From NCBI GenBank assembly GCA_947630675.1, contig CANRIN010000004.1:2545-66544 (forward strand): 64,000 nt of DNA. The letters run 5' to 3'. The position numbers and the translations under genes were made by a program. The notes under the pieces are model-generated. The model did no database searches and had not been told where the DNA came from. It saw nothing but the letters and a program-made list of their open reading frames with translations. This stretch comes from an uncultured Clostridia bacterium (GTDB lineage: Bacteria > Bacillota > Clostridia > Oscillospirales > JAAYOS01). Shown piece by piece: positions 229-61,269 of this stretch; within the stretch, counting starts at the first letter, position 1, and every line of letters begins with the position of its first letter.

Positions 229-618
229 ATGGATGAAAAAAATATAAGCCTTACTCCCGCCGAGTGGAGCGTGATGGAGTGCCTGTGGGAGCGGTCACCG
301 ATGACCGGGCGCGAGCTCACCGATGCCATGCGCGGGCAGTGCGGCTGGAGCCGTTCGACGACGCTGACGCTCCTCGGCCGGATGGAGGCCAAGGGCGCGG
401 TCGCGGGTGACACAGAGAGCGGGAAGAAGTCTTTCCGCCCGCTCGTGGGGCGGGATGAGATAGCCCTGAAGGAGACAGAGGACTTCCTCGACAGAGTCTA
501 CAACGGCAGCCTCAGCCTGCTTGTGAGCTCCTTTACAAAAAAACAACCGCTCTCCCAGAAAGAGATAGATGAGCTCTACGACATACTGAAGAAAATGGAG
601 GAGGACAGAGATGCTTGA
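229..618 (+). CDS. BlaI/MecI/CopY-family winged-helix transcriptional repressor
   Basis: 129-aa ORF with an AAGGAG RBS at 212-217. The N-terminal wHTH pattern (LTPAEWSVMECLW...TGRELTDAM...WSRSTTLTLLGRMEAKG) is typical of penicillinase-repressor proteins. It overlaps the downstream M56 peptidase gene by 8 nt. Confidence 0.9.
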   Translation: MDEKNISLTPAEWSVMECLWERSPMTGRELTDAMRGQCGWSRSTTLTLLGRMEAKGAVAGDTESGKKSFRPLVGRDEIALKETEDFLDRVYNGSLSLLVSSFTKKQPLSQKEIDELYDILKKMEEDRDA

Positions 619-3600: not shown

Positions 3601-3661
3601 AGAGCCGGAGGTGCTCCGCCTGATTTCGGAGAGCTTCGCGGCGCAGGTTTACTCCTTCTGA
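611..3661 (+). CDS. BlaR1/MecR1-like M56 family membrane zinc-metalloprotease with a very large non-PBP C-terminal extracytoplasmic domain
   Basis: 1016 aa with N-terminal TM helices. The HEXXH motif is HELTH at nt 1238-1252, followed by FRHGDN as in peptidase family M56. An extra TM lies near aa 315 (TTVLALIAVLIVAAVAAGC). The C-terminal ~685 aa carry three Asp-box/BNR motifs (TEDGGVTW, TKDSGGTW, SRDLGDTW). Confidence 0.85.
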   Translation: MLEWIVSSTLLILVVAALRAALKGRISPRLQYALWLPVLLRLLIPVSFGSSQVSVNNLVRVASGTETGQAITSFSQAELPRMTYSAAYSEVSREYEERGVDISALPSAEREAADREVLSRMNGGLTVREMLTVVWAAGAAAVGCAFVFSNLRFYACLRRSRKKLGTRGTLDVYVSGAVETPCLFGLVLPSIYVTPEAAENAAAMRHVTEHELTHFRHGDNVWSLLRGVCLALHWYNPFVWCAALLSCRDSELACDEAAIKRLGESERADYGRTLIGMTCRKRPNLFGFATTMTGSGRSIKERVIFIAKKPRTTVLALIAVLIVAAVAAGCTFTGAKEPAEDALAVFDFSLYDRLARSTYDDIVEELGLSGDEAELDMGGLFIDSVEYRGREFGEWLNFMSKLSGSDFPDEAVPTLNNIAYNYFLPEGSEDEAKEVVAELYNDLTKKYGSPVIQDTVAKMLAGDDVDFCGAGWAFPDNPYYTLSLVGEFGQGGCTVRLSCTPGPMAFIAGAEDPETAEITVDESGVPYIRYSPEEEWVRLGEPIAPPKEWATDVDGGGEGLAGRNEASALFVYPDTTELWARLVSQTDGWLVACCPRGVSSADTYVYKTEDGGVTWIETARPEEGWLVGAVGFINPERLIVAKRLFDGAPCFITKDSGGTWDEIPLPGENLQVRSITVDGSTVSMEVGPSEASPEWYVMTSRDLGDTWETAEVTVSDYASLGPMVDYAEQRASDAESVTVSYFREDGKLTETVRDTVADARAVGLQKLGELDGLAPDGTLELWEWYLEIKPTNAGGREIAPIGGEYVTEDGYLGEGSGVFTIALQRDDGGFEVLAEPEPVFFGMYRYTVEESLYDWYVTEYGMDELPLYVEDWADRLTFPEGGGFGSFPAHRYDGDGWYIYIPVEAWTPAEADGSEAAWESEYGTGSTVSVSRSENSVEDEEKQLLEQGFESSDGGVYERDADGVHESCRLFSAGSGCLCVRTVWTEDGVTEYPYIAIEPEVLRLISESFAAQVYSF

Positions 3662-3686
3662 AGCAGTTGATCGAAGAAACTTCGGA

Positions 3687-3728
3687 AAGCCCCAAACGGC
3701 GGTCTGCCGTTTGGGGCTTGCTTTCGTT
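3687..3728 (+). terminator. Rho-independent terminator after the blaR1-like gene
   Basis: 12-bp GC-rich stem (GCCCCAAACGGC 3689-3700 with GCCGTTTGGGGC 3706-3717) followed by a T-rich tail. Confidence 0.7.
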
Positions 3729-3804: not shown

Positions 3805-5160
3805 ATGAAAAGAATTGCGGCGGTCTGCCTGCTTTTCATATTGATTTTTACGTCCTGCGCCGAGAAAAGCGAGGTGCGGGAACCGTCAGCGGAACAGCTT
3901 GCGGCCGCCGTGCTCGCGAGTCAGGATACTCTTCCGCCGCTCTACGCCGTGCGGTACGGTGAGGACGGCTTTGAGGACTACGCCTCGCTGTACCTCACGG
4001 ACGTCTCGGGCGTCACGGACGGCGTGATATGCTATCCCTACGGCGTGGACGCGACCGAGCTCGCGGTGCTCCGCTTTGCGGACGCGGACGCGGCGGAGAC
4101 TGGCGAAGAGAGCATGACGGACTATCTTCTCTCCCGCGCTTCCGCGTTCGAGGGCTACGCTCCCGAACAGGCGGCGCAGGTTGAGAACGGCAGGGTAGTC
4201 CGCGACGGGCGAACCGTCCTGCTCGCGGTCTTCCGCGACACGGACGCGTCCGTTGAGGCGTTTGAGGCGTGCATAGACGGCGCGGCGCCGTCCGGGACGC
4301 TTGATTCTCTGCTTGCGGCTTCGCCGTCGCCGAGCGTGGAGCCGACGAAGGAGCCATCGGCAGAACCGACGCCTGCGGCCACAGAGGAACCGACAGAGGA
4401 GCCGAAGGTCACGGAGGAACCGAGCGCTGAACCGGCATCCTCGGAGCCTTCGGGAACCGAGCCGAGCGCGGCGCCGTCCGAAGTGCCGCCAGAGACCGCG
4501 GCGCCGTCCCCGGCAGAGGAGGCTTCCGCCGAACCGTCCGGAGAGGTTTCGTCCGAGCCGGAGATATATCCTCCCTCGCCGGATGACTTATATGACCACG
4601 ACGCGGTGCTCGAGGCATACCGAAGCGGGGACGCTTCCGCGCTCTCTCCGAAGAACGCCGCCATCTACGAGTGCGTCACGGAAGCGATAGCGGAGCATAT
4701 CAACGACGGCATGAGCGACTACGAAAAGGAACTCGCCGTACATGACTACATAATAGACTGCGGGGAATATGACCGCGCGGTGCTCTATCCCGGTTTCGGC
4801 TCGCCGGACCCGGACAACTCAAATCCGTACGGAACGCTGATAAACGGCAGCGCGATATGCTCCGGATATTCAGGCACGTTCCAGCTGTTTATGGACATGC
4901 TCGGCATTGAGTGCGTCACGGTGAACGGCACGGCGAACGCCGAACGGGAGGATCACGCGTGGAACATGGTGCGCCTCGGCGGGGAGTGGTACTGCGTCGA
5001 CGTGACGTGGGACGACCCTGTGGGGCTCGTCACGCACAGCGCCTTCGAGCGCCATCAGTATTTCAACGTCACGAGCGAGTATCTGCGCGCCACCGGCCAC
5101 TATTGGGAAGAAGAGAACGTCCCGGAAGCAACAGCGACGGAGTTTGCGTGGAAGCATTGA
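3805..5160 (+). CDS. Lipoprotein with a C-terminal transglutaminase-like cysteine-protease-fold domain
   Basis: 451 aa. Signal peptide with lipobox (LIFTSC). Pro/Glu/Ser-rich low-complexity linker (nt ~4320-4570). The C-terminal core has the Cys...His...Asp pattern of the transglutaminase-like superfamily (AICSGYSGTFQLFM...EDHAWNMV...WYCVDVTWDD). Confidence 0.8.
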   Translation: MKRIAAVCLLFILIFTSCAEKSEVREPSAEQLAAAVLASQDTLPPLYAVRYGEDGFEDYASLYLTDVSGVTDGVICYPYGVDATELAVLRFADADAAETGEESMTDYLLSRASAFEGYAPEQAAQVENGRVVRDGRTVLLAVFRDTDASVEAFEACIDGAAPSGTLDSLLAASPSPSVEPTKEPSAEPTPAATEEPTEEPKVTEEPSAEPASSEPSGTEPSAAPSEVPPETAAPSPAEEASAEPSGEVSSEPEIYPPSPDDLYDHDAVLEAYRSGDASALSPKNAAIYECVTEAIAEHINDGMSDYEKELAVHDYIIDCGEYDRAVLYPGFGSPDPDNSNPYGTLINGSAICSGYSGTFQLFMDMLGIECVTVNGTANAEREDHAWNMVRLGGEWYCVDVTWDDPVGLVTHSAFERHQYFNVTSEYLRATGHYWEEENVPEATATEFAWKH

Positions 5161-5360
5161 CCCGATGCGCCGGTGTAGGCCTCACCTCTGACTTAAGACC
5201 CACAACCAAAACCGCCAGCACAGGACAAACCTGCGTCACAACAACATCGAACGATTCCTGCGTCGTAGAATTCACAATCCGGTTCAACGCTCCGACTATA
5301 AGCGTAATGCAGATGCTTTCACTAGGAGATGGAACTGTCGGTTCTATGCAGAAAGAATAA

Positions 5361-5396
5361 GCGGGGAAGCTGATACCAGCTTCCCCGCTATTTTTG
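5361..5396 (+). terminator. Rho-independent terminator
   Basis: GCGGGGAAGCTG (5361-5372) pairs with CAGCTTCCCCGC (5377-5388), followed by TATTTTT. Confidence 0.7.
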
Positions 5397-5430
5397 GCGT
5401 GGTAGAGACTTGATATGTAGAAAGAGGGGT

Positions 5431-5473
5431 ACATAGGGGAGAAAACTGGTTTTCTCCCCTATGTGTGTTTTTG
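5431..5473 (+). terminator. Second terminator-like hairpin
   Basis: 15-bp stem ACATAGGGGAGAAAA / TTTTCTCCCCTATGT (5431-5464) followed by GTGTTTTTGG. Confidence 0.6.
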
Positions 5474-5475
5474 GC

Positions 5476-5730
5476 TACTTTTTGCACAAGCAAAAAGTAG
5501 TGCCGGACGCGGGGGCGCAGCCCCCGCATGGTGCCCGTGAGGCTCTGCCTCACTTAGGGACGCGGGGGTCGCCCCGCAGATTCCCGCGGGGCTTCCCCGC
5601 TAGAGGGGTGTGGGGCACAGCCCCGCAAAGGTAGTGATGAGGCTCAGCCTCACTTCAGGACGCGGGTCTCGCCCCGCAGATTCCTGCGGGGCTTCCCCGC
5701 TGGATGGGTGTGGGCGGTATGCCCGCCATA
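5476..5730. repeat. Hairpin array containing a ~99-nt tandem duplication (units 5537-5635 and 5636-~5730, with a partial third copy upstream)
   Basis: Direct comparison shows GTGAGGCTCTGCCTCACTTAGGGACGCGGGGGTCGCCCCGCAGATTCCCGCGGGGCTTCCCCGCT... repeated as GATGAGGCTCAGCCTCACTTCAGGACGCGGGTCTCGCCCCGCAGATTCCTGCGGGGCTTCCCCGCT.... Each unit is a string of 4-5 short GC hairpins. Confidence 0.7.
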
Positions 5731-5732
5731 TA

Positions 5733-5767
5733 TAAAAAATTCCCCGGTTCACACCGGGGGATTTTTC
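5733..5767. terminator. Bidirectional terminator hairpin
   Basis: CCCCGGT (5742-5748) pairs with ACCGGGG (5753-5759), flanked by an A-run upstream and a T-run downstream. It lies immediately 3' of the minus-strand micro-ORF. Confidence 0.6.
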
Positions 5768-5770
5768 AAT

Positions 5771-5854
5771 TCATATCTTATCTCTTCTGTGGCGAAGTAT
5801 CTCGAAGACCACGGCGATCGGGAAGAAGATCGCGGCAATTTTCAGTATCAGCAT
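5771..5854 (-). CDS. Candidate 27-aa hydrophobic micro-protein (MLILKIAAIFFPIAVVFEILRHRRDKI)
   Basis: Found by hand; it is below the ORF-track cutoff. ATG at 5854, with GAAGGA RBS-like purine tract just upstream. One TM-like helix plus a basic C-terminus. TGA at 5771-5773, followed directly by the terminator at 5733-5767. Confidence 0.35.
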   Translation of the reverse strand: MLILKIAAIFFPIAVVFEILRHRRDKI

Positions 5855-5918
5855 ACTTTTTCCTTCTTTCGGGGGAGTATCGCGGACATGAAGGACTGCC
5901 GCGTAAATTCATGTAAAT

Positions 5919-5947
5919 ATAATAACATACATCGCGGCGTCTGTCGA
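5919..5947 (-). promoter_or_regulatory. sigma-A-like promoter upstream of the 27-aa micro-ORF
   Basis: Minus-strand TCGACA (5942-5947), 17-nt spacer, TATTAT (5919-5924). Confidence 0.35.
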
Positions 5948-5992
5948 GAAATTTTTAATATTCCGCGAACCACCGCCGAAATATGTATTTCG

Positions 5993-44020: not shown

Positions 44021-44027
44021 AAGAAAC

Positions 44028-44665
44028 TGCATAATGGTGGCGCAGTATCCTAGTCAGAGCATCCGGCTCCTAGGACGGGCCTAAAAATCCGTTGAAGGGC
44101 ACATCGATGAAGTCCCTGGTGTTTGCTTCTTTCGCCCAGACTGGGGTGGATGCTGGGGGTTAAGGTTTCAGGGCGGCTTGCAACGGCATGCATCCCCCGA
44201 CCCTGTTTCCGTGGAGACCCGTTATTGTGCCGTACTCCCATCGGACGCGCGAAAGTGCCCCGGGGTAATCGGGTACGAGACGGGGTGAAACCTGTATTGC
44301 GGTGCGAAAGGTCGCTTGCGACCCGTGTAGCGCTGTGTGCAGCGTAGCCTGCCTTGAGTGGGCATGGCGGATCCGGGATCAGACTCGTCTGCCGCCGGCC
44401 GCGGCGGACGAGTTATCGCTCGAAGAAATCATGCCTGCAAAAGAGGCTAAGAGTCGGTTTGCCTGCAGTGGAAAACACCTAGGCTGTCCGCGGCGAAAGT
44501 CGGGGGCGGCGAGAGGATTGCAGTACGGACTAAGTGGTAATCCGGTACCCATTTTGGGCGAGGGCTTCAAAGGGAAACCGCCCTCTGCGGCGACGCGGGG
44601 CAGCCCTCCGTGGAAATCAGACCGGACCTAAGCCGTAAGATTTACTTTCGCTGCCGCCACTTTAT
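44028..44665 (+). ncRNA. ole: Large structured non-coding RNA; best interpretation is OLE (ornate, large, extremophilic) RNA
   Basis: About 800 bp without a credible ORF or RBS inside a compact operon. A terminal helix (44037-44045 with 44651-44660) encloses ~620 nt dense in hairpins, including GAAA and CTTG tetraloops and a 13-bp stem at 44383-44413. The flanking order ispA...[RNA]-[4-TM protein]-dxs-tlyA-nadK-argR-recN equals the published OLE/oapA context. Ends are approximate (+/-30 nt). No covariance-model search was run. Confidence 0.7.
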
Positions 44666-44757
44666 TATGCTCCCGTGCGGACGTTGTCCGCGCGCCGCCG
44701 TCTATGCGGCGGAAGCTTTATTTCATACAACTTTTTGTTTCAAGGAGCGATATCGAT

Positions 44758-49342: not shown

Positions 49343-51028
49343 ATGCTTCTCTTTCTGCAAATCGAGAATATAGCCGTAGTGGAACGCGCGGAGGTCGAGC
49401 CGGGCGAGCGACTGAGCGTCCTCACCGGTGAGACCGGCGCGGGCAAGAGCATCGTCATAGATGCGATAAACGCCGTCCTCGGCGAGAGAATGCCGCGCGA
49501 CCTGATACGCTCCGGCGAGAAGAGCGCCACCGTGAGCGCGTGTTTTTCGCCGCTCGCTCCCAGCGTGCTTGAATGGCTTGATGAAAACGGCTACGAACCG
49601 GACGAGGACGGCTCGCTCATTATACGCAGGAGCCTTTCGGCGGACAGTCGGAACCTCTGCCGTATAGGCGACCGGCCGGTGAGCGTGTCCGCGCTGAAAA
49701 AGCTAGGAGCGCTTCTTGTCAACATACACGGTCAGCACGACAGCGGACGTCTGCTCGACGAGCACGCGCACCTCGGCTATCTTGACGGATTTGCGGGAGA
49801 CGGCGAGCTTCTAGGAAGCTATCACGCTGTCTGGGGCGAGCTGCGGGAGATACGCGGGGAGATAGAAAGGCACACCCTCGGCGAGGAGGAAAAGGCGTTC
49901 CGCGCAGACTTCCTGCGGCGGCGGATAGAGGATGTCGAGGGAGCAGAGCTTGAAGCGGGCGAGGAGGAGGAGCTTACCGCGCGGAGGAAAATACTCCAAA
50001 GCGCACAGAAGCTCTCCGATGCCGTGGACGACAGCATTTCCGAGCTCTACGGAGGCGAGGACTACTCCGGCGCGCTCGCGCTTATCGAGAGTGCAGCCGG
50101 GCGCATTGATGAGGCCGCGCAGACCGATGCAAGCCTTTCTGAGCTTGCGTCAAAGCTCCGCGACCTTCGGTTTGCCGCGGAGGATGCGGCGGACGACCTG
50201 AGAAGGCTCCGCGGCGAGTACGACTTCTCGCCTGAAGAAATAGACGAGGTGGAAAGCCGCCTCGACGTCATAAATACTCTCGAGCACCGCTACGGCGGCA
50301 CGGTCGAGACGCTGCTCAGCGACCTCGACAAGTGGCGCGCGGAGCTTTCGGACATAGAGTTTTCGGAGGAAGCGCTCGAGAGGCTCCGCCGGCGCGAGGC
50401 GGATACGCTGAAGCGCGCGGAGAAGCTTGCGGATGAGCTCGGCGCTGTACGCCGCGAGGCGGGCGTCCGGCTCGCCGAAGCGATAGAACGCGAGCTCCGC
50501 GAGCTCGATATGCCGGGCGTACGGTTTGTCACCGAAGTCGAAAAGAGCGCCCTCGGCGCGGACGGCGGAGACGGCGTCCGCTTCCTTATCTCCGCGAACG
50601 CGGGCGAGGAGCTGAAGCCACTCAGCAGGATAGCGTCCGGCGGCGAGCTGTCGAGGATAATGCTTGCGATGAAGTCGGTGCTGACATCCGGCGACGAAGT
50701 GGCCACGCTCATATTCGACGAGGTGGACTCCGGCGTGAGCGGACGTGCTGCGCAGCGCGTAGCGGAAAAGCTTGCCAAGATCGGGCGCTCGAGACAGGTG
50801 CTCTGCGTGTCGCACCTGCCGCAGCTTGCGGCCATGGCGGACTGCCAGCTCCTTGTCGAGAAGCGCGAGCGGAACGGGCGCACCTTCACGTCGGTGATAA
50901 ATCTCGACGGCGAGGCGCGCGAGCACGAGCTTGCGCGTATAATCGGAGGCGAAGAGGTGACCGACACCATCCTCCGAAGCGCGCGCGAGCTCATCGACGC
51001 GGCGGACCGCTACAAACAAAACTTGTAA
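49343..51028 (+). CDS. recN: DNA repair protein RecN
   Basis: Walker A LTGETGAGKS, long coiled coil, SMC signature SGGELSRIMLA, and Walker B LIFDEVDSG. Confidence 0.95.
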   Translation: MLLFLQIENIAVVERAEVEPGERLSVLTGETGAGKSIVIDAINAVLGERMPRDLIRSGEKSATVSACFSPLAPSVLEWLDENGYEPDEDGSLIIRRSLSADSRNLCRIGDRPVSVSALKKLGALLVNIHGQHDSGRLLDEHAHLGYLDGFAGDGELLGSYHAVWGELREIRGEIERHTLGEEEKAFRADFLRRRIEDVEGAELEAGEEEELTARRKILQSAQKLSDAVDDSISELYGGEDYSGALALIESAAGRIDEAAQTDASLSELASKLRDLRFAAEDAADDLRRLRGEYDFSPEEIDEVESRLDVINTLEHRYGGTVETLLSDLDKWRAELSDIEFSEEALERLRRREADTLKRAEKLADELGAVRREAGVRLAEAIERELRELDMPGVRFVTEVEKSALGADGGDGVRFLISANAGEELKPLSRIASGGELSRIMLAMKSVLTSGDEVATLIFDEVDSGVSGRAAQRVAEKLAKIGRSRQVLCVSHLPQLAAMADCQLLVEKRERNGRTFTSVINLDGEAREHELARIIGGEEVTDTILRSARELIDAADRYKQNL

Positions 51029-51054
51029 AAAACGCGCAAACGAGCGTATAAAAA

Positions 51055-51088
51055 GACAGGAGCGGGCTTTGCCCGCTCCTGTCTTTTA
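51055..51088 (+). terminator. Rho-independent terminator after recN
   Basis: GACAGGAGCGGGC (51055-51067) pairs with GCCCGCTCCTGTC (51071-51083), followed by TTTT. Confidence 0.8.
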
Positions 51089-51090
51089 CT

Positions 51091-51657
51091 GCTTCGCACG
51101 CTGCGAACAGCGAAAGCGCGAACCAATTTCTCATCCGACACTCTACTGCTTTCGCCTGCAATATTCACTTCGCGAATATTGCCCGACCTTGAGCACGTTA
51201 CTGGCGGAGCGGCTTCGCCGCGTCCGCCTCGCAGAGAATGCGCCCCTCAACTTGTTACGCACCGTAATTTTCTACCGGGCGCATCAGACCTCGGCGCTTC
51301 GCGCCGACGTCCCGACTTTCTGCTAATTGAAGAAAAAAACTCATCTCGCGGAGCGCGTTTCAAGCGGCGAAGCCGCTTCCGCGCCGGTTCGCGCGGTTGA
51401 AGTTGGCGGCTGCGTCGCCAACTTCGCGCAGGGGCAATTCACTTGCCCCGAGCATTTCAATCGGAAGGGCTCCCACGCGGTCGCGACCGCGTGGGAATTG
51501 CGTAGCGGAGCGTTTGGCACCGGCAGAGCTACGCTCTGTCCGGTACCCTCGGCACGAAAGGGTGCGCAGCGAAGCGAGCACATTTCGTGCCGAGCAATCT
51601 CGCGGCAAATTGGTAAGGGCGCGGATTTCATCCGCGCCCGCGATTTGCCGCGATAAG
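51091..51657 (+). repeat. Hairpin-rich non-coding modular repeat, copy A (inverted relative to copy B at 59754-60350)
   Basis: About 570 bp without a credible ORF, made of consecutive short GC hairpins. The core 51364-51503 aligns to the reverse complement of 59927-60071, including a 37-nt identical run (51446-51482 = rc of 59949-59985). Further colinear blocks are 51222-51322 with 60085-60275, and 51548-51594 with 59754-59810. Confidence 0.75.
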
Positions 51658-52416
51658 ATATTCTTTCATCAGGTCGTCCATGCCGTAGAGTCCGGGCGCT
51701 GTACGCTCCGAGATGAACCTTGCGGCTCGGAGCGCACCCTCCGCGAACACCGCGCGGCTCTGAGCCGTGTGCTTCAGTTCTATTATCTCGTCGTTTCCGG
51801 CAAATATGACCTCGTGCTCGCCGACAATGGTGCCGCCGCGTATGGAGCTTATGCCTATCTCGCCGCGCGGACGCTCACGGCGGCGCTCGTGGCGGTCGTA
51901 GACGTACTCAGCCGAACCGCCCTGAGCTCTGCGTGCGGCGTCCGCAAGCATAAGGGCGGTGCCGGATGGCGCGTCAAGCTTTCTGCGGTGGTGCCGCTCA
52001 AGTATCTCGATATCGTATCCGGCGCCGAGGACTCCCGCGACCTCCTCAACGAGTGCGGTGAGAAGCGCTATGCCGAGCGACATATTTGCCGAGCGGAACA
52101 CCGGCAGCGTCTCCGCTGCGCGCCTGACCGCCTCCGTCTGCTCCTCCGAGTATCCGGTGGTGCAGAGCACGAGCGGAAGCGAACGGGGGAGGGCGTAGTC
52201 GAGTATCCCGCGCAGGGCGGAGGGATGCGAGCAGTCCACGAGGACGTCCGCCGTGCCGGGAAAATCCGCCGGTGAGCGGTATATCTCGAAACCTGCCTTT
52301 TCGGCGCCGTTGATATCGACGCCCGCGGCGATCTCAAAGTCCGGATCCTGCTTTGCCGCGTCCGCGATAAATCCGCCGAGCCTTCCTCCGGCACCGCAGA
52401 GAAGTATCTTAGTCAT
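51628..52416 (-). CDS. dapB: 4-hydroxy-tetrahydrodipicolinate reductase
   Basis: The start is trimmed to ATG 52416, which has a GAGGTG RBS. NAD(P) site LLCGAGGRLG and the EILERHHRRKLDAPSGTA signature. Confidence 0.9.
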   Translation of the reverse strand: MTKILLCGAGGRLGGFIADAAKQDPDFEIAAGVDINGAEKAGFEIYRSPADFPGTADVLVDCSHPSALRGILDYALPRSLPLVLCTTGYSEEQTEAVRRAAETLPVFRSANMSLGIALLTALVEEVAGVLGAGYDIEILERHHRRKLDAPSGTALMLADAARRAQGGSAEYVYDRHERRRERPRGEIGISSIRGGTIVGEHEVIFAGNDEIIELKHTAQSRAVFAEGALRAARFISERTAPGLYGMDDLMKEYLIAANRGRG

Positions 52417-52513
52417 TCCTGTCACCTCTGTCCCGCAGCCGCGCGACGGCGGCGGAACATCCCTTTCTTTAGAATTCAGGGGGCGAACGCTCGCCCCCAA
52501 GATAGTTAGAATG

Positions 52514-53401
52514 TCAGTCGAGGAGCCCGTAGTCCGCGAGAGTGTCGCGGAGCATCTCTTCGTTTGCCTCGCTCATTTCGACGAGAGGCATACGCGTCGG
52601 TCCGACGCCCATACCCATCATGTTCATCGCCGTCTTGACCGGTATCGGGTTTGTCTCGACAAAGAGGGCGCGCATGAGGGGGTAGTACTTGTAGTGCAGC
52701 TCGCGCGCCCGCTCGAAGTCACCCTCGAGGCAGGCGTGGGAGAGCTCGACCATCGCGCCGGGCAGGATGTTCGAGAGGACCGAGATAATGCCCTTTGCGC
52801 CGAGCGACATCATCGGAAGCGTTGCGCTGTCGTCTCCGCTCCAGATATTGAGGTCGTCTCCGCAGGCCATTTTTGTGCGGCTGACGAGCTCGAGGTCGCC
52901 GCTCGCCTCCTTGACGCCGTTGATGTTCGGGTGCTTCGAGAGCTCCTTGTAGGCGTCCACAGTGAAGCCCATGCCGGTGCGGCTGGGGATGTTGTAGAGG
53001 ATTATCGGGATGTTCACCCTGTCCGCGACGGCCTCAAAGTGGCGGACAAGTCCGCGCTGGGTCGTCTTGTTGTAGTAGGGGGTGACCATCAGAAGTGCGT
53101 CCGCGCCGCTCTTCTCGGCGTTCTGGCTCATCATGATGGCGTGTGCCGTGTCATTTGAGCCGGTGCCGGCTATTATCTTTATCCGGCCCGCCGCGCGCTT
53201 TATCGCGTATTCGACGGTAGCGAGGTGCTCCGGGATAGTCTGCGTAGACGCTTCGCCGGTGGTGCCGCATACGACGAGAGCCTCGACCCCGGCGTCGATC
53301 TGCTGCTCGATGAGCTCACCGAGCTTCTCGAAGTTGACAAAATCGGATGTGAATGGGGTGATCAGTGCCGTACCTACTCCTGTAAAAATCGGCTGCTTCA
53401 T
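52514..53401 (-). CDS. dapA: 4-hydroxy-tetrahydrodipicolinate synthase
   Basis: GVGTALITPF, VVCGTTGEASTQT, YNIPSRTG, and the active-site Lys context GVKEASG. Confidence 0.95.
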   Translation of the reverse strand: MKQPIFTGVGTALITPFTSDFVNFEKLGELIEQQIDAGVEALVVCGTTGEASTQTIPEHLATVEYAIKRAAGRIKIIAGTGSNDTAHAIMMSQNAEKSGADALLMVTPYYNKTTQRGLVRHFEAVADRVNIPIILYNIPSRTGMGFTVDAYKELSKHPNINGVKEASGDLELVSRTKMACGDDLNIWSGDDSATLPMMSLGAKGIISVLSNILPGAMVELSHACLEGDFERARELHYKYYPLMRALFVETNPIPVKTAMNMMGMGVGPTRMPLVEMSEANEEMLRDTLADYGLLD

Positions 53402-53458
53402 ACTATTCGGCTCCTTTATAGGGTTCTTGTTTGCTGTTTTTTGTCTGATACCGTGCGT

Positions 53459-54532
53459 TCAGTCGATGTACCCCTCCGCGCAGAGCAGCTCCGCTAGCTG
53501 CACCGCGCCTCCGGCGGCGCCGAGGAGGGTGTTGTGCGAAAGCGAAACGAACTTGTAGTCGTACTGCGTATCCTCGCGCAGACGTCCGACCGACACCGCC
53601 ATACCGCCCTCGAGCTCACGGTCGAGGCGGGTCTGCGGACGATCGGGCTCCTCAAAGTAGTGGATGAACTGCTTAGGGGCGCTCGGAAGCGCGAGCGACT
53701 GCGGCCGTGCGCGGTAGCCCGCCCACGCCGCTTTTATCTCCTCAACGGAGGGCTTCTCCTCAAAGGAGACGAACACCGCCGCGAGGTGACCGTCCGTCAC
53801 AGGCACGCGAATACACTGCGTGGTGATGGACGGAGTCTCTGCGTTCACTATCACGCCGTTTTCGATGCGGCCCCATATCTTCAGAGGCTCGAGCTCGCTC
53901 TTCTCCTCCTCGCCGCCTATGTAGGGGATGACGTTGTCTATCATCTCCGGCCAGGTCTCGAAGTTCTTGCCCGCGCCGCTTATCGCCTGATATGTGCAGG
54001 CGAGCACCTTTGTGGGACGGTATTTCAGCAGCGGATGGAGCGCCGGAACGTAGGACTGTATCGAGCAGTTCGACTTTACGGCTATCAGTCCGCGCTTTAT
54101 CCCGAGGCGCTTGCGGAAGCTGTCTATCACCTGAATGTGCTCCGGGTTTATCATGGCGACGACCATCGGGACATCCGGATCTCCGCGGTGCGCGGAGTTG
54201 TTGGATATAACCGGACACTCGCGCTTCGCGTACTCGAGCTCGAGCGCGTATATCTCCTGCTTCGTCATGTTGACGGCGGAGAAGACGAAGTCGACCTCGC
54301 CCGCTATCCTGTCCATATCCGCCGTCGCGTCGAGAACGGTCATGTTCGCCGCGCTCTCCGGCATCGGCTCGCTCATCATCCAATGCGCCGCGTCGCGGTA
54401 GAGCTTGCCCGCCGAGCGGGGAGAGGCGGCGAGCGCCGCAAGCTCGAACCACGGGTGCTTGCTCACGAGTGTCACGAACCGCTGCCCGACCATCCCGGTC
54501 GCACCGATGATGCCGACCCTGTACTTTTTCAT
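53459..54532 (-). CDS. asd: Aspartate-semialdehyde dehydrogenase
   Basis: GIIGATGMVGQRF, active-site Cys context SNCSIQ, and SHNTLLGAAGGAV. Confidence 0.93.
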   Translation of the reverse strand: MKKYRVGIIGATGMVGQRFVTLVSKHPWFELAALAASPRSAGKLYRDAAHWMMSEPMPESAANMTVLDATADMDRIAGEVDFVFSAVNMTKQEIYALELEYAKRECPVISNNSAHRGDPDVPMVVAMINPEHIQVIDSFRKRLGIKRGLIAVKSNCSIQSYVPALHPLLKYRPTKVLACTYQAISGAGKNFETWPEMIDNVIPYIGGEEEKSELEPLKIWGRIENGVIVNAETPSITTQCIRVPVTDGHLAAVFVSFEEKPSVEEIKAAWAGYRARPQSLALPSAPKQFIHYFEEPDRPQTRLDRELEGGMAVSVGRLREDTQYDYKFVSLSHNTLLGAAGGAVQLAELLCAEGYID

Positions 54533-54581
54533 ATTGATCTCCTCCGAATTTCTGCCATCTGCTAAGTTCTCAAAAAGCCGG

Positions 54582-54609
54582 TTGAAAAACCGACAAAATC
54601 TGCTATAAT
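54582..54609 (+). promoter_or_regulatory. sigma-A type promoter for the SpoIID/LytB-domain gene
   Basis: TTGAAA (54582-54587), 16-nt spacer, TGcTATAAT (-10 hexamer at 54604-54609). Confidence 0.45.
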
Positions 54610-54660
54610 TAGAGAGGTGCTTCGTTTACATAATATGCGGGAATTCTCCCGCCGGCTATC

Positions 54661-54689
54661 ATTGTAGCACAGCATGTACTTTTTGTCAA
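54661..54689 (-). promoter_or_regulatory. sigma-A type promoter for asd-dapA-dapB
   Basis: Minus-strand TTGACA (54684-54689), 17-nt spacer, TACAAT (54661-54666). This gives a leader of about 120 nt. Confidence 0.55.
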
Positions 54690-54714
54690 CGCAAACCCCG
54701 TTTGGAGGAACAAA

Positions 54715-56526
54715 ATGAAACGAATTACTGCTTTCCTACTCGCGCTTTCACTGCTTCTCGGCGGAGCGGCCTACGCCGCGGGCGAAGGAACGGACTTTAT
54801 CCCCGCCACAGGAGAGGATCCGTCGGCCAACCCACCCGCTCCCGTCACCTCCGAGGCTACTCCGACCCCGGCTCCGGCGCAGCCTGCGTCCTACGTCTCC
54901 GCTGCCGTGGACCCGGCCTCCGTAACATACCCCATAGAGTGCGAGCCGGAGGAGTACGTCGTCCGCGCCGGACTGTTCTACGGCTCGACGGCGCTGGCAT
55001 CCGCAAACCTCCAGAACTTTGACGGATCGGGGTATATGTTCGGCTGGTACGACAAGAACGGTATGTTCACTGCTGTCGGATACACCGCTCAGGAGAGGAT
55101 AACGACCTTCTCCGACCGCAACATGTACGTCAAGGACAGCACTTATTACGATTCGATGGGACCGTCCGGTGCGACGTCGATAGGCGCATACCATGTCCAG
55201 ACGCCGGACTCCTACCCGACATACCAGGCGGCGCTTGCCGCCGCCGGCACATATGCATCCGCGTTCCCGGCATACATAAACGGTGAGTGGCGCGTCCGCG
55301 TCGGCTCCTATCGCTCTTCCGGCGCAGCAAGCGAGGCGGCGGCTTCGCTCGGCGTGGCGAACGGCACGGTCGTCGGCGCGTCCAATACCTGCTACACGGT
55401 ATCGGTCACACCCACCGGGACCATCATATTCGAGTTTGACAACGGCGGCGACCGCTTTGGGATACGTCCGATAGGCGCGGAGGAGCCGGTCACCTGGCAC
55501 AAGGGCTACAAGTGGTCGGGCGGCTTCGAGTACAAGCGGAACTCCTCAGGCTCGCTCGTCGTTATAAACGTCGTCGAAATAGGCGACTATACCAAGGGAG
55601 TTATCCCATACGAGATAGGCACCAACTGGACCGAGGAGGGCACGAAGGTCGGCGCGGTCTGCGCCTCCAGCTACGCCGTGTTCAACAAGAACCGCCACAG
55701 CACCTACGGCTTCGACGTCTGCAACACCGACCACTGCCAGGTCTATCAGGGTCTGAACCGCGCCACTGCACAGACGAACGCCTACTGTGACGCCGTCGCC
55801 GATCTCGCTATGTTCTACGACGGGAAGATATGCGACACCGTCTACCACTCCACGAACGGAGGCTACACGGAGGATGCGGTGAATGTCTGGGGCGTGGACT
55901 ACCCGTATCTCAAAGCGGTGCCCGACACCTACGAGGACCTCGACCGCGCCCAGTACGGGCGCTGGAGCTACACCTACACCGGCGAGGAGATAGCGTGGGT
56001 GCTCAATCAGAAAAACTATTCGATAGGCACAGTCACGCAGGCGTGGGTCGAGAAGTTCACCCCCGCAGGAAACGTGTACACCGTGAGCTTTATGGACGCG
56101 AGCGGGAAAAAACTGAGCTTTTCCAAGGAGCAGGCGCGCACCATCCTCACAAGCAGCACCCTCGGCAAGGGCACAAGGAGCCAGCGCTACACCATCTCCA
56201 CCGGGACGGTCGAGATAGCCGCAGGGGAGAGCGGGACCCCGGTGTCCGCCTCCACTGCGCAGGTCATAGGTAAAGACGGCGTCGTCTCCGGTCTCCGCAA
56301 TCCGGGAGAGGTGTACGTCGTGACGGCGACCGGCAAAGATGTGCTCCGCTCCACGTCCTCCTCCGGCGTGTTCGTCGTGAGCGGGACCGGGTGGGGCCAC
56401 AACGTCGGCCTCAGCCAGTGGGGAAGCCGAGGCCGCGCGGAGGCGGGCTGGGACTATGTCTCCATACTCGAATACTACTACACCGGCGCTAAGGTGATGA
56501 ATATTCAAGAGGTACTTGGCGGATGA
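54715..56526 (+). CDS. SpoIID/LytB-domain protein with an N-terminal SPOR-like module
   Basis: 603 aa with a signal peptide. SPOR-like segment (..[22 protein letters not shown]..). SpoIID domain motifs ([48 protein letters not shown]). Confidence 0.85.
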
Positions 56527-57542
56527 AAAAAAGCGACTTCTGGTATGAGCTCCCCGAGGAGCTGATAGCGCAGACGCCGTCCCCCGAACGGGACGGCTCG
56601 TCTCTTATGCTCCTTGACAAGTCGACGGGAGAGTACTCCTTTCATGTTTTCCGCGAGATAGCGGACTTTCTGCACGAAGGCGATCTTCTCGTCATGAACG
56701 ACTCGCGCGTCCTCCCCGCGCGTCTTATCGGCGCGCGGAGCGGCGGTGGAGCGGCGGAGGTCCTGCTGCTCCGCGAGCGTGAGGGAGGTCTGTGGGAATG
56801 CCTCGTCCGGCCCGGACGGAAGCTCCGGCCCGGCGCGCGTGTCACCTTCGGCGACGAGCTCGCATGTGAGATAGTGTCCGTCGAGGAGGGGGGGAACCGC
56901 CTCGTTCGGTTCGAGTACGACGGTATCTTTCTCGAGATACTCGAGCGCCTAGGACGTATGCCGCTCCCGCCGTACATCAAGGAGACCCTTGACGACCCGG
57001 AGCGCTATCAGACGGTATATTCAAAACATCTCGGCTCCGCGGCCGCGCCGACGGCGGGGCTTCACTTCACCGAGGAGCTGCTTCAGCGCATACGGGAAAA
57101 GGGCGTAGAGGAAAAATTCGTGACGCTGCACGTTGGGCTCGGGACCTTCCGTCCGGTGAGCGAGGACGAGATAGAAGATCACCCGATGCACTCTGAGTTC
57201 TGCATCCTTCCGGAGGACACTGCCGAGGCCGTGAGCCGCGCGAAGCGGGAGGGACGGCGGGTGATCTCCGTCGGGACGACGTCCTGCCGCGTGCTCGAGA
57301 CCTTTGCGCGGGAGGACGGGACGATGGAGCCGGGCTCGCGCTGGACGGATATTTTCATCTATCCCGGATACAGGTTCAAGGCTGTCGACGCGCTCATAAC
57401 AAACTTTCACCTACCGGAGAGCACACTTATTATGCTCGTCTCGGCGCTTGCGGGAAGGGAACACATCCTCGAGGCGTACAAAGCTGCGGTAGAACATAGA
57501 ATGAGGTTCTTCTCGTTCGGGGATGCGATGTTCATTCATTGA
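56523..57542 (+). CDS. queA: tRNA preQ1(34) S-adenosylmethionine ribosyltransferase-isomerase
   Basis: [35 protein letters not shown], and [12 protein letters not shown]. Confidence 0.95.
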
Positions 57543-57565
57543 ATTTCAGGAAAGGCGGATATAGT

Positions 57566-59752
57566 ATGCCGATAAAAGCAAACAAGAACGCAAACACGAT
57601 ACGCATACTCACAAACAACACCGAGTACCAGATAAAGGTCGACAAATTCGGCATACTCAAGCACGTCTGGTACGGCCGGCCGGTCTGGGACGACATGGAC
57701 CATCTCCTCGACTATCCCGGCATCGGCTTTGCGGGAAACATACACGAGTCGGGCGACCGGCGCGAATACTCGCCGGATACGCTCCCGCAGGAGTACGGGT
57801 GCAGCGGCGGCGCGGACTACCGTGTGCCGTCGATAAGCGTCGTATTTCCGGACGGCTCGCGCACGGTAGACCTCCGCTACATCGGCTACACGATAGAGAA
57901 GGGGAAGTACTCCATACCCGGCCTTCCCGCGGTCTACGCCTCGGAGGACGACGCAGAGACGCTTGAGATATACCTTCAGGACACCGCAAGCGAGCTCGTG
58001 GTGCGCCTCCGCTACGGCGTCCTGCCGCAGTACGACGTTATAACGAGGAGCGCCGTTATCTCCAACAAGGGAAGCGCGCCTGTCCGCTTGGAGAACGCCA
58101 TGAGCTTCTGCCTCGATATTCCGTTCGGCGACTGGGACAGGATGACCTTTGTCGGCCGTCACGCCATGGAGCGCGTGCCCGACCGTCAGCCGGTCGACCC
58201 CGGGATACACGAGAGCTCGAGCGCGAGGGGAGCGTCGAGCCACCAGCAGAACCCGTCGGTCATACTCTGCTCGAAGGACTGCACAGAGACGGCGGGCGAG
58301 TGCTACGGAGCGGCGCTCGTGTACAGCGGGAGCTTCAAGACGCAGATAGAGCGCGACCAACTCGGCGGAACGCGCCTCGTCATGGGAATAAATCCCGACC
58401 TCTTCAGCTGGGAGCTCGGGGCGGGGGAGGACTTCTACACCCCCGAGGCGATAATCACATACAGCGGCGAGGGATTTGACCGCCTCTCGCAGAATTTCCA
58501 CAGTGTCATACGCAACAACGTCTGCCGCGGAAAGTACAAGCTCGCGCCGCGCCCCGTACTCATAAACAACTGGGAGGCGACATACTTCAACTTCGATGAG
58601 GAGAAGCTTGCCGCGATAGCTAAGCAGGCGTCCGAGCTCGGCGTCGACCTCTTCGTGATGGACGACGGCTGGTTCGGAAAGCGCGACGGGGACACCTCCG
58701 GTCTCGGCGACTGGAAGGTAAACGAAAACAAGCTCAAGGGCGGTCTCAAGCCGCTTGTCGACAGGGTAAAGAGCTGCGGGATGAAGTTCGGTATCTGGTT
58801 TGAGCCGGAGATGGTGAGCGAGGACAGCGACCTCTTCCGTGCGCATCCAGACTGGGCGATAGCCGTTCCGGGACGTGCGCCGGTGCTGAGCCGCAGCCAG
58901 CTCCTGCTCGACCTCACGCGGGCGGACGTCCGCGAATACCTCTACGGCGCGATAAGCGGTATACTTTCGAGCGCCGACATATCCTATGTGAAGTGGGACT
59001 TCAATCGAAGCATGTGCGACTGGTATTCCCACGAAATTCCGAAAGAGCGTATGGGCGAGATGCCGCACCGCTACATGCTCGGCCTCTACGAGCTCCTGGA
59101 GCGGCTCACGCACGACTTCCCGGACGTGTTGTTCGAGGGATGCAGCGGCGGTGGAGGACGGTTCGACGCCGGCATGCTCTACTACACGCCGCAGATATGG
59201 TGCAGCGATGACACCGACGCCTACGAGCGCACGAAAATACAGTACGGCACGAGCTTTATATATCCCGTCTCCGCAGTCGGTTCGCACGTCTCCGCCGTCC
59301 CGAACCATCAGACCGGCCGTGTGACGCCGCTCGAGGCGCGGGCCGTCACCGCCATGGCGGGGAGCTTCGGCTATGAGCTCGACCTCGGAAAGCTCTCGGA
59401 CAAGGAAAAGGCCGCCGTGAAGGAGCAGATAACACGCTTCAGAAAGTACGACGACCTTATCCATAACGGCAGCTATCACCGCATCTCCGACCCGACGGCG
59501 GACAGGTTCGCCGCGTGGGAATATGTGTCGTTTGACAGGACCGAGGCGCTTGTCCACGGCATGGTCTTCCGCACCGAGCCGAGCGCGATGCGCTATCGGA
59601 TACGTCTCCGCGGCCTCGACCCGGAAAAGCTCTACCGCTTCGACACCGACGGAAAGATATACTCCGGAACTGCGCTGATGAACGGCGGTATACTTCTTCC
59701 GCGCACATGGGGCGACTACGCGCCGTTCGAGCTGCACTTCACAGAGTTCTAA
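57566..59752 (+). CDS. Alpha-galactosidase, glycoside hydrolase family 36
   Basis: The start is trimmed to ATG 57566. NNWEATYFNF, FVMDDGWFGKRD, YVKWDFNR, and CSGGGGRFD are GH36 (AgaA/MelA-type) signatures. Confidence 0.9.
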   Translation: MPIKANKNANTIRILTNNTEYQIKVDKFGILKHVWYGRPVWDDMDHLLDYPGIGFAGNIHESGDRREYSPDTLPQEYGCSGGADYRVPSISVVFPDGSRTVDLRYIGYTIEKGKYSIPGLPAVYASEDDAETLEIYLQDTASELVVRLRYGVLPQYDVITRSAVISNKGSAPVRLENAMSFCLDIPFGDWDRMTFVGRHAMERVPDRQPVDPGIHESSSARGASSHQQNPSVILCSKDCTETAGECYGAALVYSGSFKTQIERDQLGGTRLVMGINPDLFSWELGAGEDFYTPEAIITYSGEGFDRLSQNFHSVIRNNVCRGKYKLAPRPVLINNWEATYFNFDEEKLAAIAKQASELGVDLFVMDDGWFGKRDGDTSGLGDWKVNENKLKGGLKPLVDRVKSCGMKFGIWFEPEMVSEDSDLFRAHPDWAIAVPGRAPVLSRSQLLLDLTRADVREYLYGAISGILSSADISYVKWDFNRSMCDWYSHEIPKERMGEMPHRYMLGLYELLERLTHDFPDVLFEGCSGGGGRFDAGMLYYTPQIWCSDDTDAYERTKIQYGTSFIYPVSAVGSHVSAVPNHQTGRVTPLEARAVTAMAGSFGYELDLGKLSDKEKAAVKEQITRFRKYDDLIHNGSYHRISDPTADRFAAWEYVSFDRTEALVHGMVFRTEPSAMRYRIRLRGLDPEKLYRFDTDGKIYSGTALMNGGILLPRTWGDYAPFELHFTEF

Positions 59753-59753
59753 A

Positions 59754-60350
59754 CGTCGGCGCGAAATGTGCTCGGGCAATGAATTGCCCTGCGCACCCTT
59801 TCGCGCCGAGACTTTCACTTGAAATTGCGCAGGCGCAATTTCAAGTGAAGCTGTCGGATAGGGCGAAGCCCTACCGACAGCAACGCTTCGCTACGCGCCG
59901 AGTTTTTTGCCTCTGGCAAAAAATCGACGCAATTCCCACGCGGTCGGTGACCGCGTGGGAGCCCTTCCGATTGAAATGCTCGGGGCGAATGAATCGCCCC
60001 TGCGCAAAGTTGCTTGCCTGTGGCAAGCAACTTTAACCGCGCGAACAGGCGCGGACGCCGCCTTTGGCGGCGTAGAAAGTCGGACGCGGTATGGGGTGGC
60101 AGGCGCATTGTACACGCCGCCTAAATCTACCGATTGGAATCTATTTCGCGCCTAACGTCGCCCTCCGGCTCATAAAATGTAGGGCATTCGGCGCTTCGCG
60201 CCGAATGCTGATGCGTCCGGTAGCAAAGTTCTTGGGCATAAATAAGTCGCAGGGTGCATTCTCCGCGAGGCGTTTGTTGAACAAGATCAAAATGTCGGGC
60301 GCAGTTCTGCGCCCGACATTTCCATGCAAATCTCGCAATATTCAATGAAA
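59754..60350 (-). repeat. Hairpin-rich non-coding modular repeat, copy B (inverted relative to copy A)
   Basis: About 600 bp without a credible ORF. Its reverse complement is colinear with 51160-51594. It carries extra inserted hairpin modules, for example at ~59811-59925 and ~60100-60195. Confidence 0.75.
60286..60320 (-). terminator. Terminator hairpin 3' of the MBL-fold hydrolase gene
   Basis: AATGTCGGGCGCAG (60291-60304) pairs with TGCGCCCGACATT (60308-60320), with a T-run on the minus strand (rc of 60286-60291). Confidence 0.6.
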
Positions 60351-60390: not shown

Positions 60391-61269
60391 CTACGCTTTC
60401 CGCCAGAGGAGAGTATTGTCCGAGATTTCCGCCGTGACGCGCCCAAGGCCCTTCATCCAGGCGAGGTAGGAGCGCACGGTGCTCCCGATGAGCGCGTGCT
60501 GCTCGAAGGTCATCGCAAGCGAAAACTCTTCAAATACCCGCTTGAGGAGCGCTTCAAAGGTAGTAGGCTCCGCAAGGAGCTTCGCTATCCGCTCCGCCGT
60601 ATCGTATGTCGCCGCGATGTTGAGGTCGGCGAGCTCGGTGATGTCCTCCGCCGCGTCCGCATGGGATGGGACGAACAGCTTTGCATTGAGCGTCTTCACC
60701 TTTTCAAGCGTCGCGAGGTATGCCCCAACGTCATAGACAAACGCTATGCCGTACTTCTCAAGCGTCTCGCGGCTCGCAAGGCAGTCCGCGAGGTAGACGA
60801 CGTCGTCCGGGGTGCGGAAGCCGACCATGTCGAGAAAGTGACCGGGCAGGGGAATGACTTCAACCCCGTCCGGCAGGACCTCCTGCGTCAACGGCTCGGC
60901 GTCGCTCGGCTCTGCGAGCAGGAACTTGCGGCGGAGCTCGTCCGGCGGGCAGCCTCCGTAAAGGAAGGACGGCTCAAGAACCGGGTGCCGTACAAAGCCG
61001 AGCTCCGCGCCCGGGGCGTATATCTTGCATCCCGTCCTGTCCTGAAGGAATTTGTTGCCGCCTATGTGGTCGGCGTGGGAGTGTGTGTTGTATATCGCGC
61101 GGAGATGCCAGCCGTTCTCATCGAGCAGGCGGCGGACCTTGCGGCCGGCGTCCTTGTCGCCGCCGCTGTCTATAAGGCAGACATCGCCGCCGTCAAGCCG
61201 CACGAGCCCTATCTTGGCGGGACATTGAAGATAATAGCTGCTGCCTGAGGCAAGTGTCAGTTCGTACAT
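60391..61269 (-). CDS. MBL-fold metallo-hydrolase
   Basis: 292 aa. Zn-binding HxHxDH motif (THSHADHIGG) and downstream His/Asp ligands. Confidence 0.8.
   Translation of the reverse strand: MYELTLASGSSYYLQCPAKIGLVRLDGGDVCLIDSGGDKDAGRKVRRLLDENGWHLRAIYNTHSHADHIGGNKFLQDRTGCKIYAPGAELGFVRHPVLEPSFLYGGCPPDELRRKFLLAEPSDAEPLTQEVLPDGVEVIPLPGHFLDMVGFRTPDDVVYLADCLASRETLEKYGIAFVYDVGAYLATLEKVKTLNAKLFVPSHADAAEDITELADLNIAATYDTAERIAKLLAEPTTFEALLKRVFEEFSLAMTFEQHALIGSTVRSYLAWMKGLGRVTAEISDNTLLWRKA

Follow-up and report, generated by a model that had tools for sequence, protein, structure and literature searches.

The question raised by this locus is what fills two intergenic gaps that hold arrays of hairpins and no recognizable gene. 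The locus lies in a stretch of 64,000 nt from an uncultured Clostridia bacterium (GCA_947630675.1, contig CANRIN010000004.1), which we call the window. An earlier note on this DNA took the gaps for either a structured RNA or a modular repeat of the REP/BOX type. This framing holds, and the evidence favors a modular dispersed repeat. In our judgment the regions are probably islands of a clade-specific, non-coding, mosaic intergenic repeat, similar in kind to BIME, NIME and BOX elements, which may give structure to gene 3′ regions in cis. The family, previously undescribed, is restricted to four rabbit-gut Clostridia genomes that are close relatives. To our knowledge, most work on mosaic intergenic repeats has dealt with Proteobacteria and streptococci, and very little with gut Clostridia.

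Two islands built from common modules

Alignment bears out the inverted colinearity of the two regions. With limits placed at the points where similarity to other loci begins and ends, island A occupies 51099–51653 (+) and island B 59756–60271 (−); the forward strand of the islands is, by convention, + for A and − for B. A 37-nt identical run (CCCCGAGCATTTCAATCGGAAGGGCTCCCACGCGGTC) lies at 51446–51482 (+) and 59949–59985 (−), with 0 matches in 100 shuffles, and a repeat search pairs the two islands through inverted arms 64 nt long with 94% identity and 34 nt long with 88%. The flanking blocks align as well, the cap/Mb block at 51226–51316 with 60179–60271 and the end module at 51548–51594 with 59756–59810. 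All three compensatory changes that had been pointed out are present, namely GGGGCA/TGCCCC versus GGGGCG/CGCCCC, GGCACGAAA/TTTCGTGCC versus GGCGCGAAA/TTTCGCGCC, and GAAGTTGGCG.. versus AAAGTTGCTTGCC.. in the third stem. Relative to shuffled sequence, folding gives z = −10.5 for island A and z = −13.3 for the island B region (59754–60350). There is no credible coding, as the note had also said: eight internal open reading frames (ORFs) of 82–109 aa have no Pfam match at E ≤ 0.01 (best 0.066).

We depart from the earlier note in the nature of the unit. Rather than two diverged copies of one 0.55–0.6 kb element, the islands are two mosaics assembled independently from common modules. Island A reads, in order, inverted Mc, cap, Mb, one core unit, hairpin H5, end module and terminal hairpin; island B reads cap, an Mb-like module, an extra module, one unit, the start of a second unit, H5, H6 and end module. 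Each island is a string of a few hairpin modules drawn from the set of cap, Mb, Mc, core, H5, H6, end module and terminal hairpin. The exact run and a covariance model built on the core unit both find only these two copies within the window. A weak further match to the model at 3612–3721 (+) (29.4 bits, E 0.001), at the end of a gene at 611–3661, is probably noise.

Stems that vary and loops that do not

The proposal that constraint acts on pairing rather than on a reading frame finds strong support in covariation over 37 aligned units. In a structure drawn up from the hairpins (42 pairs, 1484 cells), 97.5% of the cells form standard pairs, compared with 32–45% when the 3′ partners are slid by 1–3 columns. 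Double changes are seen in 21 of the 42 pairs and fill 177 cells, against 58.6 ± 6.1 in shuffles, and none of the 500 shuffles reaches 177. One-sided changes of the G·U type account for 14 of the 1484 cells. H2, H3 and H4 each occur in at least five fully paired stem variants, those of H3 including GGGGCA, GGGGCG, GGCGGA, GCCCCG, GCTCCG and GCCGGA. Invariant across units are H1, the loops and a 27-nt linker. Of 31 instances of H5, 30 retain a G·T wobble and a bulged C while both stem segments covary; on the opposite strand the wobble would be an A·C mismatch, which makes H5 the clearest strand marker.

The stems are therefore free in sequence yet must pair, and the loops, the 27-nt linker and the wobble with its bulge are fixed. 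Together these features indicate that the working form is one self-folded strand, the forward one. Perfect stems may also have a purely mutational origin, through templated correction within palindromes, but this would leave the invariant loops unexplained.

Copy number and distribution

Beyond the window, the 27-mer GAGCATTTCAATCGGAAGGGCTCCCAC occurs 25 times in 23 loci, all of them in three metagenome-assembled genomes (MAGs) of uncultured rabbit-gut Clostridia, CANRJS01, CANPWY01 and CANQDU01. The 19-mer core GCATTTCAATCGGAAGGGC occurs 60 times in the same three (22, 21 and 17 copies). Elsewhere the 19-mer gave one chance match, in Paucibacter, among other genomes amounting to 596 Gb, two matches in JGI metagenomes and none in the viral contigs of IMG/VR. 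The Paucibacter and JGI matches lie in unrelated AT-rich or coding DNA, and a wider distribution was rejected on that ground; a phage origin was likewise rejected because the IMG/VR search was without a match.

The covariance model extends the count. At a threshold of E < 1e-6 it detects about 88 units across 451 kb of clade DNA, and many of these lack the exact 19-mer. On a control of 1.38 Mb of loci from other Clostridia, other rabbit MAGs included, it finds nothing significant (best E = 0.18). Searched by itself, the cap motif gives 50 matches in clade loci against 0 in 1.24 Mb of loci from elsewhere, and the other module motifs are likewise confined to the clade. Additional copies, for which the earlier note had asked one to look, are thus plentiful in relatives, with about 60 exact cores and about 88 model matches.

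The three MAGs are mutually 93–96% identical in coding flanks. The window is about 89% identical to CANPWY and thus represents a fourth closely related genome; DapA identity drops from 97% within the group to ≤65% outside it. Repeat copies stand right at contig ends in L014, L019, L104, L107, L111 and L125 (here and below, L-numbered loci are stretches of the related clade MAGs). Short-read assembly thus seems to break at the islands, and copy numbers are probably underestimates.

These genomes hold more than one family of such repeats. A further hairpin array, different from islands A and B, lies in another convergent gap at window positions 5161–5992, with tandem 100-nt units at 5512–5611 and 5612–5711 and hairpins that include GGGGC..GCCCC, GAGGC..GCCTC and GCCCCGCAG attc CTGCGGGGC. 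Its homologues at 81–85% identity in L119, L004 and L121 are the basis for counting it as a family of its own.

Turnover between genomes

Six sets of orthologous islands, with flanks 90–96% identical, differ in which modules they have, each gained, lost or replaced cleanly as a whole. At the copy-B site every one of the four genomes has an island, of about 520 nt in the window and about 850 nt in CANPWY, which has an extra inverted unit, Mb and Mc; in CANQDU (about 250 nt) and CANRJS (about 330 nt) the island is without a core unit. At the copy-A site in CANPWY the island is gone except for a remnant of the end module, and a 1.3-kb AT-rich insert with a 372-aa ORF (L024 4151–5480) stands in its place. 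The sole match of the insert protein is a sub-threshold SAP domain (E 2e-4), and the insert resembles foreign DNA that has entered the island site.

Other rearrangements are local. Units are repeated in tandem with a period of about 110–150 nt in L020, L023, L114, L115, L125 and L126, and L002 carries a 345-nt duplication at 98% identity. Inverted units are found in L007, L011 and L134, and island A carries the inverted Mc. Between non-orthologous loci, stretches at least 97% identical are at most module-sized, up to 135 nt, and for this reason recent transposition of whole elements is not supported; an example is the 94-nt H5–H6 segment at window 59789–59882, which is 100% identical to L004 2631–2724, a non-orthologous locus of CANRJS. 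Among 28 cap-to-end spans checked for target-site duplications, no matching flanks were seen. The cap (GCCTCGCAGAG..) and the island ends (..GATTTCCCGCGA or ..CACATTTCGCGCCGA) are not inverted copies of one another, and so do not form terminal inverted repeats. Stable orthologous sites, differences on the scale of modules, and the lack of target-site duplications and terminal inverted repeats together point to old islands that are remodelled locally, not to active jumping.

Position relative to genes

Gaps were classed by gene calling based on GC content at third codon positions, which reproduces the Pfam-supported genes of the window. All units in clade DNA are intergenic, and they are present in 22 of 45 convergent, 22 of 115 tandem and 5 of 38 divergent gaps; both window islands sit in convergent ones. 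In about 25 of 37 islands the 3′ end covers the stop codon of the converging gene or falls 0–6 nt from it, and the cap usually begins a few to about 25 nt past the terminator hairpin of the other gene. Housekeeping genes of an ordinary kind flank the islands, among them those for SpoVAD, MreB, PFK, an FtsH-like protein and MetRS. A scan of 77 flanking genes matched 134 Pfam families, and no transposase is among the 25 most frequent of them. Core units also stand directly beside tRNA genes in L108 (5616–6431), L127 (6253–6491 and 7432–7811), L011 (7309–7697) and L016 (1–269).

The contact between island and gene can alter the gene. In island A the loop of the terminal hairpin contains the dapB stop codon (51628–51630, minus strand); dapB runs into this hairpin (51628–51657, −) and gains 8 codons net (IAANRGRG) relative to its CANPWY orthologue; the DapB C terminus reads ..KEYLIAANRGRG in the window and ..KEYLK in CANPWY (L024). 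In L013, L115 and L117 the ORF of the converging gene likewise ends within the loop of a repeat hairpin. Read in the sense of the abutting gene, the terminal stem of island A is followed by TTACCAATTT, and a T-run does follow some orthologous terminal hairpins (L123, L126).

Comparison with known families

No named RNA family accounts for the islands, in keeping with what the earlier note had reported. Rfam gathering thresholds are not reached and the islands give only noise at E ≤ 10; across the window OLE RNA is the sole Rfam match, and 16 further loci gave tRNAs only. The label of a miniature inverted-repeat transposable element, which the note had allowed for, is rejected, as terminal inverted repeats and target-site duplications are lacking. 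The note had also considered pseudogene remnants, and these are rejected, since there is no Pfam match and the modules are kept by pairing and not by frame.

Three narrower candidates were also considered. First, Mc contains a 15-codon ORF (MSDEELVRALAVRSG) with GAGGG upstream that recurs in many modules (e.g. L016 ~4270–4320), is intact in several and shows some synonymous differences. It is broken by an internal stop in L008, has no start in L126 and no stop in L106, and in the Mc of island A (51108–51160) GAGGGC/GCCCTC has become GAAAGC/GCTTTC, which keeps the pairing and loses the ribosome-binding site; we read it as structure, not as coding. Second, a hammerhead-like CUGA...GAUGA in the Md module misfits the hammerhead core and has no Rfam match. 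Third, the islands do not look like a stand-alone small or non-coding RNA gene, as neither window island has a promoter-like site and a hairpin with a T-run ends only a minority of copies.

The nearest analogues are other mosaic repeats. REP/BIME, NIME and BOX/SPRITE elements form GC-rich hairpins in mosaics and are biased to convergent 3′ regions; repeats of the REP/BIME type affect mRNA stability and are linked to recombination, SPRITE is terminator-like and BOX is modular (PMC3184786). The likeness to the REP/BIME elements of Enterobacteria and Pseudomonas lies in the many GC-rich extragenic hairpins, the mosaic clusters with further conserved motifs and in both orientations, the enrichment between convergent genes and at gene 3′ ends, and a polarity set by asymmetry of the hairpin. 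There is, however, no sequence similarity, the host belongs to the Clostridia, the modules are larger (including a 126-nt four-hairpin unit), and the islands come in tens of copies rather than hundreds. As for the REPIN–RAYT pairing, no RAYT is among the 25 most frequent Pfam families of the flanking genes, whole genomes lying outside that scan. BOX/SPRITE of Streptococcus pneumoniae shares the Firmicute host and is modular, strongly folded and non-coding, with variable internal units and lengths of 67–637 nt. Going by the description of BOX (boxA–boxB(n)–boxC), the module set of the islands is larger and its order looser; moreover, the islands are without a known partner insertion sequence and are confined to four related uncultured genomes.

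NIMEs resemble the islands as intergenic arrays of repeat units that are split by short inverted repeats and prone to recombination (PMC3184786). The sequences are unrelated, however, and nothing like the dRS3 junction repeats was seen in the islands. In NIMEs these junction repeats are phage integration sites. The bcr1 repeat of the Bacillus cereus group, also in a Firmicute, is an intergenic repeat of about 155 nt in which compensatory changes preserve the fold (PMC3184786). It differs in being a single unit with 5-bp direct repeats whose position varies by strain, whereas the islands have no direct repeats and their sites are stable. A parallel may also be drawn with integron attC sites and REPINs, in which structure is kept and stem sequence drifts. 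Extrahelical or mismatched bases give both attC sites and the REPs of E. coli their polarity, and the wobble and bulge of H5 match this pattern. Here, though, there are no cassette ORFs, neither an integrase nor RAYT is listed nearby, and the conserved single-stranded sequence is much longer. The family departs from the known kind in four respects: its constant loops and long constant linker beside stems that vary freely, its large four-hairpin unit, its conserved wobble and bulge, and the placement of its 3′ end at stop codons.

Interpretation

Because the islands lie at gene 3′ ends, with their own 3′ end against a stop codon and the terminator of the other gene upstream, a role in cis at the 3′ end suggests itself. 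Judged from this position, an island could act for the abutting gene as a terminator, as a block to read-through or as a protector of the mRNA 3′ end, and its conserved single-stranded parts may be bound by a putative factor. The islands stay at fixed intergenic sites while their modules are gained, lost, duplicated in tandem, inverted or replaced, probably through recombination at short GC-rich repeats together with short-tract exchange between copies.

Several observations weigh against this account of a cis-acting mosaic repeat. Variable stems beside invariant loops and linkers are the reverse of what REPs show, and are more typical of functional RNAs or of DNA sites recognized by structure. 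The strand asymmetry is modest: internal mismatches number 49 G·T versus 27 A·C (p = 0.015, from copies that are not independent), and the folding energies of the two strands are less than 2% apart, with means of −72.0 (forward) versus −71.0 kcal/mol (reverse) for units and −276.9 versus −272.2 kcal/mol for islands. Orientation in tandem gaps is unbiased in the model-based set (17 versus 15), a bias relative to genes in the 19-mer set (16 versus 7) having vanished in this larger one. A terminator scan calls none in island A, and most copies of the terminal hairpin have no canonical T-run behind the stem. The flanking-gene scan found no mobilizing enzyme among its 25 most frequent families, and the proposed 3′-end role draws on position only.

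What else could produce these properties? One possibility, to which we attach a small but real weight, is that the islands are substrates for an enzyme that acts on folded single-stranded DNA and, encoded elsewhere in the genome, spreads or rearranges them in trans; candidates would be a RAYT or an IS200/IS605-type HUH transposase, or a tyrosine recombinase, as for REPINs and attC sites. Conservation of structure without conservation of stem sequence is consistent with such a substrate, as are the asymmetric wobble and extrahelical base of H5, the near-equal folding of both strands, and the gain and loss of modules at orthologous sites; the rarity of G·U-type intermediates (14 of 1484 cells) suits DNA hairpins better than RNA helices. 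This possibility must nevertheless contend with the lack of a transposase or integrase among the 25 most frequent families of the flanking-gene scan and of any target motif, target-site duplication or terminal inverted repeat. Near-identical stretches at non-orthologous loci (≤135 nt) give no pointer to recent movement, and islands keep their sites in species whose flanks differ by 5–11%. Moreover, the two window islands are opposite relative to replication and alike relative to the abutting gene.

A second possibility is that the islands are genes for large modular structured RNAs of a new family, with tens of paralogues in each genome, expressed from the forward strand and trans-acting or protein-binding. 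This seems unlikely to us, although several features speak for it: the strong covariation with invariant loops and a 27-nt single-stranded linker, the conserved G·U wobble in H5, the folding z-scores of −10 to −13, and short variants (L007, L107, L106, L126, L123) that end in H4 or a UUCG-type hairpin with a T-rich forward-strand run behind it. Neither window island, however, contains a promoter-like (sigma-70-like) site, and lengths of 215–787 nt, variable order, inverted modules and core-less islands define no single architecture. G·U pairs make up only about 1% of cells, the antisense strand folds nearly as well, and islands often overlap an opposite-strand gene at its stop codon. Finally, a local accident, either a segmental duplication in two copies or decayed pseudogene fragments, fits the count of just two copies in the window but is refuted by the dozens of copies that lie at unrelated loci of the three MAGs, by the absence of a protein-family signal and by stems that covary, so that its probability is negligible.

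A bolder proposal, which we put forward tentatively and regard as rather improbable, is that the islands represent a new class of element read by structure, whether a modular RNA or a recombinase substrate in single-stranded DNA, in which a 126-nt four-hairpin unit has freely varying stems while the loops, linker and wobble with bulge would be recognition sites for a putative factor, and which would have colonized positions just after stop codons in one uncultured gut Clostridia lineage.

The islands offer a compact natural experiment, in that dozens of paralogous hairpins have had their stem sequences replaced, with pairing kept, beside long invariant single-stranded tracts. This pattern points to a partner that binds specifically, and could in turn reveal a new RNA–protein or DNA–protein recognition system. 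On the practical side, the islands alter the ends of genes, as with the 8 codons net of dapB, could mark the lineage, and probably break MAG assemblies.

Anatomy of the islands

Read hairpin by hairpin across copies, the family uses a recurring set of modules that follow one another on the forward strand. An island opens with the cap, GCCTCGCAGAG plus a GTTCGCCGCC hairpin. Two optional steps follow, first Mb (..CTACCGGGCGCATCAGACC-TCGGCGC ttc GCGCCGA-CGTCCCGAC) and then Mc and Md, in which a GAGGGC/GCCCTC stem encloses a conserved loop of about 30 nt. The fourth step is the core unit of about 126 nt, composed of H0, H1 (CCGCGC cggttc GCGCGG), H2 (GAAGTT..AACTTC), GCGCAG, H3 (loop ATTCAYT), the linker GAGCATTTCAATCGGAAGGGC, and H4 followed by AATTGCGTAGCGGAGCG. 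H5 and an optional H6 form the fifth and sixth steps, and the seventh is an end module (CTCGGCGCGAAA..GAGCACATTTCGCGCCGA), a terminal long hairpin (TCGCGGGAAATTGGTAA-variable hairpin-GCGATTTCCCGCGA) or both. Individual hairpins are 17–55 nt long, and islands measure 215–787 nt from cap to end. The cap and the end or terminal modules recur and each island has 0–2 core units, some islands being without one; order and orientation are not fixed.

Island A (51099–51653, +) extends from the recN terminator to dapB. Its neighbors are a recN-like gene at 49343–51028 (+), with a terminator hairpin at 51051–51087, and dapB at 51628–52500 (−). Its Mc module (GCAATATTC hairpin plus ..GTCGGATGAGAAATTGGTTCG..), at 51099–51194 (−), is inverted relative to the rest of the island and has 13 related copies; at other loci Mc shares the orientation of the core. 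On the + strand there follow the cap (GCCTCGCAGAG) and Mb (..CTACCGGGCGCATCAGACC-TCGGCGCttcGCGCCGA-CGTCCCGAC) at 51226–51316, and the core unit at 51377–51501, supported by a covariance-model match of 144.8 bits (E 5e-27) and by the pair counts. Within the core lie H1 (51379–51396), H2 (51398–51426), H3 (51431–51449), the invariant linker (51450–51470) and H4 (51471–51496); the 37-nt identical run spans the end of H3, the linker and the start of H4. H5, a two-part hairpin with the G·T wobble and bulged C, lies at 51516–51547 (+). The end module (CTCGGCACGAAA..GAGCACATTTCGTGCCGAG) at 51548–51594 (+) is the part that survives as a remnant in L024. The terminal long hairpin (CTCGCGGCAAATTGGTAA-GGGCGCGGAT ttc ATCCGCGCCC-GCGATTTGCCGCGA), whose loop holds the dapB stop, lies at 51599–51653 (+).

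Island B (59756–60271, −) extends from the stop codon of a GH36 α-galactosidase gene (57539–59752, +) to the terminator of an MBL-fold gene (60391–61269, −); positions 60272–60350 are unique DNA plus the terminator hairpin of the latter gene (60289–60322), and lie outside the island. All of its parts read on the − strand. By alignment, a cap variant (GCCTCGCGGAG) with an Mb-like module lies at 60179–60271, and an extra module without a counterpart in A (..GGCGTGTacaATGCGCC..) at 60098–60152. The core unit at 59929–60056 matches the covariance model with 146.2 bits (E 2.6e-27) and comprises H1 (60037–60054), H2 (60005–60035), H3 (59982–60000), the linker (59961–59981) and H4 (59934–59960). The alignment also places at 59897–59930 the start of a second unit (GCGTCGA plus an H0-type hairpin), which A does not have; the same junction recurs in the tandem arrays of L020 and L023. 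H5 (59850–59881) and H6 (59814–59849), the latter a 16-bp hairpin (TTCACTTGAAATTGCG), together occupy 59814–59881, and the end module at 59756–59810 stops 3 nt from the GH36 stop codon.

The OLE RNA of the window, at 44021–44676 (+), is full-length (RF01071, 440 bits, model positions 1–616), and its presence places the host among the anaerobic Firmicutes with OLE.

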